A DNA stretch of 60,069 nt, filler included, from Basidiobolus ranarum (lineage: Eukaryota), in the NCBI GenBank assembly GCA_040143965.1. It is 13 parts of 13 records of this genome, joined end to end, with 100 filler letters (N's around TTAATTAATTAA, not from the genome) between each part and the next. Parts side by side here need not be neighbours in the genome. Positions count along the whole stretch, not along the records: positions 13,917 to 18,450 come from JASJQH010008800.1; 12 more parts are not named here. One strand, given 5' to 3'. Position numbers and translations under genes: made by a program. A model generated the notes under the pieces. The model was not told the origin of the DNA. It worked only from the letters and a program-made list of their open reading frames with translations, and made no database searches. Shown here one piece after another: positions 3,194-36,202 of the stretch (positions are counted from its first letter, which is position 1; the number at the start of each line of letters is the position of its first letter).

Positions 3194-4429
3194 TTAATAT
3201 CTTTTCACATTCATATTGCGTTTCAACTCGACCTCCTCCGTGAAATGGTTGTGATAACCCTGGGTAGTTTCACAGTTGTTGCAAACCTCAATCCGTTTGA
3301 ACCACTCGTCTTCAAGAATATCCTGAACAGTAATCCGTTCACTGGGATTAGGCTCTAGTATACGCATCAAGAGCTCACGACAACCAGGTGGTAGCTTATT
3401 AAGTGGTTCGTAAGTTCCAAGACGTCGAAGTTCCAGAAAATTCTTGTAATTAGGGTCGTTTTTAGTTGCCGTACGGAAGGGGATGCCATGATATGTCATT
3501 GCGTAATAAACAATCCCACACGCCCAAATATCTACCTCCCGAGCATCATATTCTTTGCTGGTAAATGCCTCGGGTGCAATGTAAGGTTCAGAACCACAAA
3601 TCCCACGAGATAGGTGAGCTTGTCGTTCCCAGCACATCCTAAACACATCGGAGACTCCGAAATCGGTGATCTTTAAATGGCCATGGTCATCGAGGAGAAG
3701 ATTCTCTGGTTTGATATCTCGATGAGCAACGCCCATGGAATGCAAATATGCGACACCCTGTATAAGCTGCTTGAAACAGCAGTTGATCTCGGTGGTGGAC
3801 ATCCTACCGTTCTTGATGATATTGTACAAGTCACCACCTGGGCAGAACTCCATAACCTCACACCATCGATTATTTTCATCTAATACAAGGTCTATGGTTT
3901 CAACGACATTGGTATGATGTAACGATGAGGAGATACAAAACTCGGATGTAAGCTTCTTCACATATTCTCGCTCCCCTTCGTCCTTTCTGCGACGACGGAA
4001 GGACTTCACTGCGTACAATTTCTCATTCTCCGAGGAGCCAACATAATCAATCTTGTGTGCTAGACGAACAACTGCTGTTGCGCCTCTGCCAATACATCCC
4101 TTGTCGCAAACGTACTTCTTGTGTAGGAAATTCTCTCGTCTGACTCCCATCCGTTTGCAGTCACCATTTTCGGAAGGTGGGGGAGAGTTGAAGATACGTT
4201 GAAGGATATTCTTCTTTGTCTGTTCATTCTCAGTATCGTCCAAGTACGCGCTAGTGTTATCAGGTTCGGGGAGTGGGAGGGAAAGAACGTTGTTAGGGGA
4301 TGTCTTGGGGAAAGGGGACTTTGCGCTTCGAGCTGAAGCTTTTGTCTCACCAAAAAGTCCAGGCTCAGCCCTGCGACGGACATTTGAATCCATAGCGGGA
4401 GCCCAAAAGTCGGGGGAAAAGGTGACCAT
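3194..4429 (-). CDS. Ser/Thr protein kinase, HAL family (Hrk1/Sat4/Npr1-like)
   Basis: Intronless 411-aa ORF with GRGATAVV, YAVK, KKLTSEFCISSSLHHTNVVETIDL (typical of fungal HAL kinases), HRDIKPEN, DFG, GSEPYIAPE and DIWACG. Confidence 0.92.
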   Translation of the reverse strand: MVTFSPDFWAPAMDSNVRRRAEPGLFGETKASARSAKSPFPKTSPNNVLSLPLPEPDNTSAYLDDTENEQTKKNILQRIFNSPPPSENGDCKRMGVRRENFLHKKYVCDKGCIGRGATAVVRLAHKIDYVGSSENEKLYAVKSFRRRRKDEGEREYVKKLTSEFCISSSLHHTNVVETIDLVLDENNRWCEVMEFCPGGDLYNIIKNGRMSTTEINCCFKQLIQGVAYLHSMGVAHRDIKPENLLLDDHGHLKITDFGVSDVFRMCWERQAHLSRGICGSEPYIAPEAFTSKEYDAREVDIWACGIVYYAMTYHGIPFRTATKNDPNYKNFLELRRLGTYEPLNKLPPGCRELLMRILEPNPSERITVQDILEDEWFKRIEVCNNCETTQGYHNHFTEEVELKRNMNVKRY

Positions 4430-4542
4430 CTTGAAATAGAATATTGATGAATGGTCTTTACAAATCTGAATTGATGTCTAGCTGTTGCAAGTCGAAATAG
4501 ATGCTAATCTGCCGCGTTGAAGTCGAATATCGTAAGCTGTTG

Positions 4543-16545: not shown

Positions 16546-16949
16546 TCATAGAATTTTGTAACCACCTATTCATCATATGAATTTTGTTAGAAATTGAGGA
16601 ATTACTATACTCCACCCGTACCTCATATAGAAGACCTAATTTCGAACACTCTATCCTTTCTATCAATCATTAACATTATTCAATTACTCTTATTTCAAGT
16701 TTTCATTGAAAATATTTAGTATTTGGTAATAAATATTGCATCTTAAAATATTTTTTTAAACTGGTATTGTCAAAATAGACATTATTGAGCGATATTTTCA
16801 AAGCAATGTATTCGAGTACTACCCACATCCGCTCTGTTTTCGAGATTACCTTCTTGATAGAGTTTCCAAGTCATTTGAAGACTTGTCATTTTTAATTCCT
16901 ACTTTAAAATAATCAGCTACAGTATTTAGTTTGTAATTGTCTATCTTAA

Positions 16950-17467
16950 AGGCACGATTGTAGTAATGATATATATCCACGACTAGAGATAGTCATTATT
17001 GATGAAGCTCATAATGTTAGAGAGAATGCTAACAGATATAAGAAGCTATACGATGTCTTAACACTCCTATGACAATATACGTCTATTGATTATTACAGTT
17101 ACTCGTATGATTGAGAAGATTATAGAAATAGATTCTTTACGTAATCCTATCGCCTACTCTAATAAAACCCACCAAGATATCACTCCTAGATATAAAGGAT
17201 AAGATATTAGGTACTCTCTATATTAGTAAATTCAAAGGTAGGCAATCAGAAGAGTATAAAAAAGATCAGAAACAAAATACTAAAGATATATATTCTAACA
17301 AAAGACAAACATCTCTAACTGTTGATTCTTTCTTTAATCCAGGTATACCTTTGGATGAACAAAGTGCTTAAATAAATGCTCTACTAGATTCATTGGTACC
17401 TGAAGAATTGTGTATAGTATTTTCATTTCTTGTCACTAAAGGAATTAGATTCTTAGAGTCAGATTGA
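16950..17467 (+). pseudogene. Frameshifted fossil of an SF2 DEAH helicase, poxvirus D6/D11-like or cytoplasmic linear-plasmid-like
   Basis: Three successive frames give IVIIDEAHNVRE (DEAH at 17001-17012), NIRLLIITVTRMIE (motif III-like) and YISKFKGRQSEEY..DIYSNKRQTSL..EQSAKINALLDSL..LCIVFSFLVTKGIRFL; no introns. Confidence 0.6.
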
Positions 17468-17746
17468 GTTAGATGGACTGATAATAGTGATAAGCCTTAT
17501 AGAAGTAATAGTACAATTTCAATGACTACATGCTATCTAATTCATTTGTCGAGAGTAAAATCTAATACGAATGGACCAAGTGTAGAATGTTTGAATTGAT
17601 GAGGAAAGTTTATTAAGTTCATGTGATTGTTAAACGAGAACAAGACCAAGTTGATTACTCTTGTCCTTCAACAGGAGGCAATCCATCGTCAACTATAAAC
17701 CATTCAAAAAAGTGAGTGTGAGGGGGGGGGGAGAGTATAGGTTCAA

Positions 17747-18450
17747 TCAATACGTACCTCTGCGTCTGTAAATGGTAATTTCCTGTTGTTTGAAGTATCT
17801 ACGGTTCTCTTCATCGATCAGGACCAAGTTGAGATAGTATCTGGTGGAGAATTTCTTGTTGACATCTCTGTAAGTAGGAGTCAAGTCGAAACCACCGAGG
17901 AACAGCCGAATGGGAATGGTTTCACCTATAAACGAAGAATCGCTAAATATCATTCAAACCAAAGTACACAAAAACGTTCACAACTTTACCACGAATAGGG
18001 GCACCATCCATGATTTCGAACTTGGTCAAATTCTCGCTCTCGTTGTATTGATTAGGCGCTAGAATGCAATACTAAGTTCCAATCGAAAGAAGAAACTTAC
18101 AGATTTAGTGGAAACAGAGGATACCTGAGCCAGTGGTTTCTCGTCTAATGATCGACAACTCCATATGCTTGATTTTAATACGGACCAACAAAAAGTAAAT
18201 CTTCCCTACAATGACGTCTTTCAGATGATATCTAAAGAACAGAAGTAATGTAAGAGATAGTTCAACAAATTGAGATTCCATCACTTGACTGAGAATATAC
18301 TTTGATTTGTTGTATTCAAATTCGATATGAAGACAATCTTCGATACCAACTTCCATTTTAATGGAATTGTTAGTATCCAAAGGCATTCTATACGAATAAA
18401 CCCAAAAATCTTTCTCCTTTACGAGATCCGATAGTCTACGGGAGACAGTA
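17747..18450 (-). CDS. VPS26: Retromer subunit Vps26 (Pep8), 3' part, four exons visible
   Basis: [66 protein letters not shown] and RRYFKQQEI, joined by GT-AG introns. Confidence 0.95.
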
Positions 18451-18550
18451 NNNNNNNNNNNNNNNNNNNNNNNNNNNNNNNNNNNNNNNNNNNNTTAATT
18501 AATTAANNNNNNNNNNNNNNNNNNNNNNNNNNNNNNNNNNNNNNNNNNNN

Positions 18551-18709
18551 GGCAGCATCGCCAATGAGTCGCTCCGAGTAGTTGAAGGCCACGTAGGATG
18601 GGGTAGGTGGAGTACCTTGGTCGTTGGGGATGATTTGAACCCGATCATTTTGCCATTCGCCAACACAAGAGTAAGTGGTACCCAAATCAAGTCCGACAGC
18701 TTTGGACAT
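18551..18709 (-). CDS. Cytosolic Hsp70 (SSA-like), 5' end only, with atypical substitutions
   Basis: [53 protein letters not shown]; cut by the contig edge. Confidence 0.85.
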
Positions 18710-18840
18710 TTGTATAGTATATATAATGTAGTATATAAGATATTCAAGCGTATTCAAGGAAGAGATGAATTAATTGAACTTCTGAGATCATAAATCTCCT
18801 CATTTTATAGTTTATTTAATTAGCAGGATGATATGATCCC

Positions 18841-34233: not shown

Positions 34234-36202
<1,969 letters not shown>

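Follow-up and report, generated by a model that had tools for sequence, protein, structure and literature searches.

In a stretch of 60,069 nucleotides joined from 13 parts of the Basidiobolus ranarum genome (GenBank assembly GCA_040143965.1; this whole stretch is hereafter called the window), the spacer between two convergent nuclear genes, encoding respectively a PDR-type ATP-binding cassette (ABC) transporter and VPS26, holds the broken remains of a helicase gene. With a probability that we put at about 0.82, these remains (the fossil) are a dead nuclear copy of roughly one-third of a YKP4 gene, that is, a helicase gene of the pGKL2 ORF4 type, covering approximately residues 120-290 of some 600 and derived from a cytoplasmic linear double-stranded DNA plasmid (virus-like element, VLE). 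The gene is dead: it carries two frameshifts, a nonsense codon and an 18-nt deletion, and both of its ends are missing. What is left is a gene fragment, and not a working member of its helicase family.

A helicase gene fragment between two nuclear genes

A first-pass annotation of the spacer had quoted three peptides in three successive forward frames and likened them to a helicase. The peptides are present in those frames, and the TGA said to end the first of them does lie at 17070-17072. The third had been described as an 82-codon open frame at 17219-17467; this frame is not open, a TAA at 17369-17371 having been misread as lysine, and its real layout is 50 codons, TAA, 31 codons and then TGA 17465-17467. 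Comparison with homologous proteins resolves the fossil into four pieces, which are set out in Table 1 together with the lesions that separate them and the exons on either side.

The segment 17132-17464, comprising pieces 3 and 4 with the intervening TAA read as X, was used as a phmmer query against 1.84 billion representative proteins. It matched exactly seven, of 571-610 amino acids, with E-values of 7.7e-14 to 1.3e-5 and 30-49% identity, in each case at about residues 200-290 of the matched protein; all seven bear the ResIII/DEAD, SNF2-related and Helicase_C Pfam domains. Comparison of these seven with the whole window by tblastn gave three collinear matches in three frames, extending over residues ~104-303 (summed E 6e-32 for the protein designated P0002). 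A family set of 34 proteins was then defined, of which 31 were listed by a profile search with the seven (E <=7.9e-160) and three were first matches that this search did not relist. When the 34-member profile was run against the 3,240 six-frame stop-to-stop pieces of at least 12 amino acids in the window, it matched only four, all of them collinear and all belonging to the fossil, the next best piece having an E-value of 5.5. The closest single relative is P0027, with a summed tblastn E of 4e-42 and 60% identity over 161 aligned columns; across the 34 family members identity to the fossil runs from this value down to 32% over ~160 columns. The frames aligned in this way comprise 160 codons free of stops, whereas the six straight frames through this stretch each have 9-17 stops per 160 codons. 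The proposal that the stitched peptides are homologous to helicases is borne out by the phmmer match, the four collinear profile matches and the summed tblastn score, and a chance origin of the similarity is excluded.

The fossil spans ~168 of the ~600 profile positions (~28%, positions 121-288), and takes in motif II, motif III, the middle region and the start of the second lobe. Piece 1 holds helicase motif II (IIDEAHN, with DEAH at 17001-17012) and is identical to P0027 at 16 of 24 residues in the tblastn alignment. This alignment continues across the first frameshift, passing from ...LL to HSYDNIR, while the old frame runs on into the TGA already mentioned. Reading TGA as tryptophan, as in the mitochondrial code, was tried by eye and dropped: it carries the frame past 17070 but motif III is lost. 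Motif III lies in piece 2 and is degenerate, reading ITVTR (17092-17106) against ITATP in the family, so that the near-invariant A and P are replaced by V and R. The 18-nt, six-codon deletion is in frame and falls between 17145 and 17146, where the profile shows a six-residue gap after SLRN; over piece 2 as a whole 29 of 52 residues are identical to P0027, with 6 gaps. The last position of piece 2 is 17199; piece 3 enters the alignment at 17198-17207, in the next frame. Piece 3 represents the middle region peculiar to the family (KG.Q..Y, RQ.S, IPLDEQS), and pieces 3 and 4 joined are identical to P0027 at 52 of 83 residues. The lysine replaced by the TAA between them is K263, which is invariant in the alignment of family homologues. 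Piece 4 corresponds to the start of the second RecA lobe, with its first strand and helix and the motif IV region (IVFSF..KGI.F), at about the position where the Pfam Helicase_C domain begins in the homologues; the TGA follows.

Table 1. The fossil, its lesions and its nuclear flanks, with positions counted along the window
Feature	Position	Strand	Evidence and remarks
PDR-type ABC transporter, last long exon and stop codon	14941..16545	+	Left nuclear flank; Pfam ABC2_membrane E 5.3e-45, PDR_CDR E 1.5e-7, ABC_tran E 7.6e-6
Possible weak 5' continuation (unsure)	16929..16976	+	In-frame TAA 16947-16949; tblastn alignments of some homologues reach 16929-16941 (P0033 residues 111-148, P0027 residues 115-148)
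Fossil piece 1, frame of 16950	16977..17063	+	Profile positions 121-149; E 4.9e-9, 32.9 bits
First frameshift	17059..17064	+	Frame moves +1; pieces 1 and 2 meet at adjacent profile positions 149/150
Fossil piece 2, frame of 17062	17065..17199	+	Profile positions 150-200; E 7.7e-8, 29.0 bits
Second frameshift	17200..17206	+	Loop of variable length, 7 nt against 4 codons in P0027; TAA 17200-17202 closes old frame
Fossil piece 3, frame of 17132	17198..17368	+	Profile positions 202-258; E 5.9e-16, 55.8 bits
Nonsense codon, in-frame TAA	17369..17371	+	At near-invariant lysine (EQS.K)
Fossil piece 4, frame as piece 3	17372..17458	+	Profile positions 260-288; E 9.8e-7, 25.3 bits
VPS26, C-terminal exon	17750..17953	-	Right nuclear flank; Pfam Vps26 E 4.1e-16, profile positions 232-275 of 275

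Beyond these limits the gene is not found. The downstream piece 17468-17596 matches neither the family profile nor Pfam, the family profile has no match in the stretch upstream of the TAA at 16947-16949, and profile positions 1-120, which include the Walker A motif, and 289-600 match nothing anywhere in the window on either strand. The first-pass annotation had rightly reported that motif I is lacking upstream. A complete superfamily 2 (SF2) helicase core, with motifs I to VI in one open frame, is thus absent, and only motifs II and III and the motif IV region are present. Of the 35 columns in the covered span with a conservation of 94% or more among family members, 27 have been kept and eight changed, among them the lysine lost to the TAA. 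From the single stop among 161 codons, the substitutions accumulated since inactivation can be put at roughly 0.04 per site, with a very wide range of 0.001-0.23; this value is not a date, but it suggests that capture was recent relative to the age of the family.

The flanks are those of ordinary nuclear genes, and their Pfam matches agree with the initial description of an ABC transporter gene on the forward strand converging on VPS26 on the reverse strand. A further VPS26 exon at 18105-18449 matches Pfam Vps26 with E 4.4e-40. From the transporter stop codon (16545) to the last VPS26 exons (from ~17655-17750 upward) the spacer measures ~1.1 kb and has 29.9% GC. The fossil was originally singled out as AT-rich and as keeping several CpGs; both statements are true, but neither property is distinctive, since its 30.7% GC lies close to that of the whole spacer and within the 27-35% of other intergenic stretches of the window, and its seven CpGs give an observed/expected ratio of 0.57, compared with 0.52 for the whole window and 0.62 for the ABC transporter exon.

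Relatives of the helicase and the source of the fragment

When the profile of the seven first matches was compared with the Protein Data Bank (PDB), the best solved relatives proved to be vaccinia NPH-I (D11; E 1.1e-19) and the small subunit of VETF (D6; E 2.5e-18), and the kind of helicase originally proposed, an SF2 enzyme of D6/D11 type, is upheld by these matches. The family is set apart from its more distant relatives both by score and by size: its members are listed at E <=7.9e-160 and the next tier at 5.9e-50 or weaker, and they are of ~600 amino acids as against ~650-1,070. P0027 and P0029, which form a small branch of their own, have 664-667 amino acids; they are longer than the other members by ~60 and contain an insert, which in P0027 lies at about residues 440-500. 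The contigs that carry the 34 members do not exceed 17.4 kb in 32 cases; the remaining two measure 27.2 and 69.0 kb. The only species named among the sources are Coemansia reversa, whose protein is encoded on a 10.2-kb contig, and Cunninghamella echinulata. The protein of the latter (P0035) has only 448 amino acids and lies on the 69-kb contig, unlike most members with their small contigs; here a second early-diverging fungus may have a copy of the plasmid helicase that is either integrated in the nucleus or truncated. A quick maximum-likelihood search with 38 rows (the 34 members, three distant outgroups and the fossil) gave a tree in which the fossil is nested inside the family beside P0027 and P0029 (SH-aLRT 84), within a clade of 20 rows (94) that includes the Cunninghamella echinulata protein, whereas the Coemansia reversa protein falls in a different clade.

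The first-pass annotation had left the choice of source between a linear plasmid and a large DNA virus. Descent from a D6/D11-like helicase gene of an endogenised giant virus (Nucleocytoviricota) would agree with the poxvirus enzymes being the best solved relatives, with the nearest large ESM-Atlas clusters to the family, all of which are Nucleocytoviricota helicases, with the frequency of distant relatives on giant-virus contigs in IMG/VR, and with the giant-virus pseudogenes of fungal nuclear genomes for which reports are cited in PMC13348850. The fossil itself, however, points elsewhere. A profile built from 89 more distant, giant-virus-like relatives scores only 21.5, 8.3 and 3.8 bits on pieces 1-3, and piece 4 is absent from the best 12 of its 74 rows, whereas the family profile scores 32.9, 29.0, 55.8 and 25.3 bits on the four pieces. 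The fossil nests in the ~600-residue family, separated by more than 100 orders of magnitude in E-value from the longer tier, and the viral homologues, although they share with it a helicase superfamily and sub-kind, are distant, longer and without the family-specific middle region. Moreover, no other plasmid- or virus-like pieces were seen in the spacer in Pfam scans of the fossil, flank and antisense pieces or with PHROGs. A giant-virus source is accordingly disfavoured, and we consider it unlikely; a plasmid fits much better.

Support for a linear plasmid comes from comparison with known systems. According to the main text of Heneghan, Salzberg and Wolfe (Genome Biol Evol 2026, PMC13348850), free cytoplasmic linear plasmids occur in Coemansia, Cunninghamella, Umbelopsis and Podila, with a possible one in Kappamyces; their housekeeping genes are named YKP3-YKP11, YKP4 being the helicase that corresponds to pGKL2 ORF4. 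The same text argues that VLEs go back to the ancestor of terrestrial fungi, and describes toxin clusters without housekeeping genes in Pezizomycotina. From the relevant passages of PMC6211774, pGKL2 ORF4 resembles vaccinia D11 (NPH-I) and D6 (VETF), and its product, K2ORF4p, associates with the plasmid RNA polymerase and with plasmid DNA and has been proposed to be an ATP-dependent initiation factor. The fossil family resembles YKP4 in being of the D6/D11 kind, and in the fossil the order and spacing of motifs II and III and of the motif IV region are also the same; in addition, the named members of its family come from genera that PMC13348850, in its main text, reports to carry such plasmids. 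It differs in comprising only ~28% of the gene, in being broken, and in lying on a chromosome and not on a linear plasmid. The setting of a gene on a linear plasmid, with terminal inverted repeats and other YKP genes alongside, is not that of the fossil, whose neighbours are the two nuclear genes. The family is therefore read as YKP4, and the initial suggestion that a helicase of pGKL2 ORF4 type had been captured in the nucleus is supported by the ~600-residue family, its D6/D11 relatives, its Coemansia and Cunninghamella members and the nuclear flanks.

Nuclear captures of plasmid DNA (NUPAVs) have been described in budding yeasts (in the accounts given in PMC4431711 and PMC11848437), and the fossil resembles them as AT-rich, degenerate and apparently plasmid-derived DNA that is contiguous in the assembly with ordinary nuclear genes and is a non-functional record of a past plasmid. 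It differs from them in that its host lies outside the Dikarya and in that the captured gene would be a housekeeping gene of a helper plasmid, where the yeast accounts, in the parts that bear on this, stress immunity and toxin genes. By the route described for the budding-yeast NUPAVs, a fragment of plasmid DNA would have reached the nucleus and been joined into a chromosome break. The helicase gene would then never have been complete at the ABC transporter/VPS26 site, and the captured fragment would have decayed neutrally and would have no function now. By analogy with K2ORF4p, the intact plasmid gene would encode an SF2 ATPase like poxvirus D6 and D11, which would associate with the plasmid's own RNA polymerase and DNA and for which a role as transcription initiation factor is proposed.

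Strength of the plasmid reading and its implications

Several points weigh against this assignment. The identification of the family with YKP4 draws on the genera named, the length of the proteins, the size of the contigs and the text of PMC13348850. Small contig size is weak evidence, most metagenome contigs being short, and the two members on longer contigs (27.2 and 69.0 kb) may themselves be nuclear. Scans of metagenomes and IMG/VR for gene context yielded no relatives but distant ones, most of them giant-virus-like and 21-48% identical over the best segment; a tblastn search of PLSDB plasmids with P0027 gave no match. The tree came from a quick search in which the placement of the fossil is not starred, the outgroup branches are very long and the root is unsure. 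The contiguity of the fossil with its nuclear flanks is a property of the assembly, which is the sole witness to it. Finally, the pieces taken singly are poorly recognised. In Pfam, piece 1 gave sub-threshold matches only (DEAD_2 E 0.0029, DEAD 0.013, ResIII 0.1) and the other three of the four were blank, while phmmer searches of the PDB with three pieces alone gave no match, one match (to an irrelevant cilia protein, E 1.3) and no match, respectively. PHROGs likewise returned nothing better than E 0.067, to families of unknown function, and a word-index protein search with piece 1 had none of its six candidates at E 1 or better. These early searches were too weak to tell the fossil from AT-rich DNA in which a DEAH motif had arisen by chance; it was the family searches described above that settled the matter.

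A different history is that the fossil is the remnant of a plasmid-helicase copy that once functioned in the nucleus, whether domesticated or borne by a transposon, and was not dead on arrival. The 448-residue Cunninghamella echinulata protein on its 69-kb contig would be in keeping with this, as would the possibility, raised in PMC13348850, that some Coemansia isolates rely on nuclear copies for housekeeping functions. Against it, no more than a third of the gene can be made out, and the positions before 121 and after 288 are unmatched in the 60 kb analysed; the 1.1-kb gap between the convergent genes offers no room for a promoter and a full gene of 1.8 kb; no second copy of the spacer was found in the window, where it is single-copy; and AT-rich VLE genes are poorly expressed from the nucleus, at least as reported in the pertinent part of PMC4431711. 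A decayed domesticated copy is possible but unsupported, and we regard it as improbable.

Descent from a decayed duplicate of a cellular helicase gene of the SNF2/Rad type, the kind of best match that the first-pass annotation had named as fatal to its proposal, is excluded. The homologues do match the Pfam SNF2-rel_dom (E 4e-8 to 1.6e-5), and piece 1 has its weak DEAD_2, DEAD and ResIII matches; but the other 11 of the 13 PDB matches of the family profile, mostly SNF2-type remodellers, Rad5 and Rad54, reach only E 4.4e-4 to 7.3e-3, far weaker than NPH-I (1e-19) and VETF-small, and for this reason cellular helicases are not the best matches, while the strongest piece of the fossil (positions 202-258) is specific to the ~600-residue family. 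The wrong joining of plasmid reads into a nuclear contig, as an assembly artefact or contaminant, is conceivable in so far as the place of the fossil is given by the assembly, but very improbable for a degenerate sequence whose frameshifts, stop codon and truncation would not be expected of a plasmid gene alive in high copy, and which is short and bordered on either side by unique AT-rich spacer, the interval from the ABC transporter to VPS26 being free of N runs.

If the fossil does derive from a linear plasmid, it is a record of past VLE carriage by the Basidiobolus lineage. For a long time budding yeasts were the only known hosts of cytoplasmic linear killer and helper plasmids, and, going by the main text of PMC13348850, reports from early-diverging fungi date from 2025-26. 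The annotators' suggestion that the element may be undescribed needs qualifying in this light: the plasmid class is already described in early-diverging fungi, and it is for Basidiobolus that none was found to be reported. Neither 'Basidiobolus' nor 'Entomophthoromycotina' occurs in the main text of PMC13348850, although its supplementary tables may list such cases, and none of the papers in the library searched mentions Basidiobolus together with a linear plasmid. A NUPAV-type fossil of a VLE gene is of a known kind; as far as we have found, what is new is the host lineage. A helper-plasmid helicase fossil in Basidiobolus would add an independent host lineage, and would mean that nuclear capture of plasmid housekeeping genes has also taken place outside the Dikarya. 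Such fossils would offer a means of recognising that a lineage once carried plasmids even where these have disappeared or escaped sequencing. All this extends recent work modestly and does not amount to a new kind of element.

The fragment by itself cannot show that a plasmid is still present in the Basidiobolus lineage. That this lineage still carries, or very recently carried, a helper-type cytoplasmic linear plasmid of the P0027/P0029 clade, known so far from environmental contigs only, is a tentative and rather doubtful extension of the plasmid reading. Were it true, the host range of VLEs would gain a third early-diverging lineage, and nuclear fossils would become usable for tracing and dating plasmid carriage across fungi outside the Dikarya.

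Other features of the window

A motif resembling that of B-family DNA polymerases (YKLNTVADYF-like) was noticed at 16849-16992 on the reverse strand, where Pfam DNA_pol_B_exo1 gave E 0.03, the sole match among ten flank and antisense pieces. It was judged to be due to chance and rejected because ~0.4 such matches are expected over 14 peptides and because its four PDB matches, at E 0.29 or weaker, include no polymerase. Likewise unrelated to the fossil is a P-loop match at 34978-35133 on the reverse strand, obtained with the distant-relative profile (E 0.0047) and also by tblastn, which falls in an AAA-ATPase exon, proteasome-ATPase-like by eye. Several exons of this AAA-ATPase gene (GPPGTGKT; proteasome-Rpt-like by eye) occupy 34234-35369 on the reverse strand, and account for the weak P-loop matches of the helicase queries near 35.0-35.1 kb.

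Adjoining VPS26 in the window, the N-terminus of an Hsp70-like protein was recognised by eye at 18503-18769 (reverse strand). The window contains 24 N runs (1,056 N), arranged as pairs of 44-base runs approximately every 4.6 kb, for example 13817-13860/13873-13916 and 18451-18494/18507-18550; one such pair interrupts VPS26 and the neighbouring Hsp70-like gene. The regular spacing suggests masking rather than assembly gaps. Elsewhere, the reverse strand at 3194-4477 carries an intact single-exon gene for a HAL4/SAT4-like Ser/Thr kinase, the one marker by which the window was assigned to a Basidiobolus-like fungus. Its product shares 83% identity with one from Basidiobolus meristosporus CBS 931.73, and its next named relatives are mostly from Mortierellomycotina, with identities of 72% or less over partial alignments.

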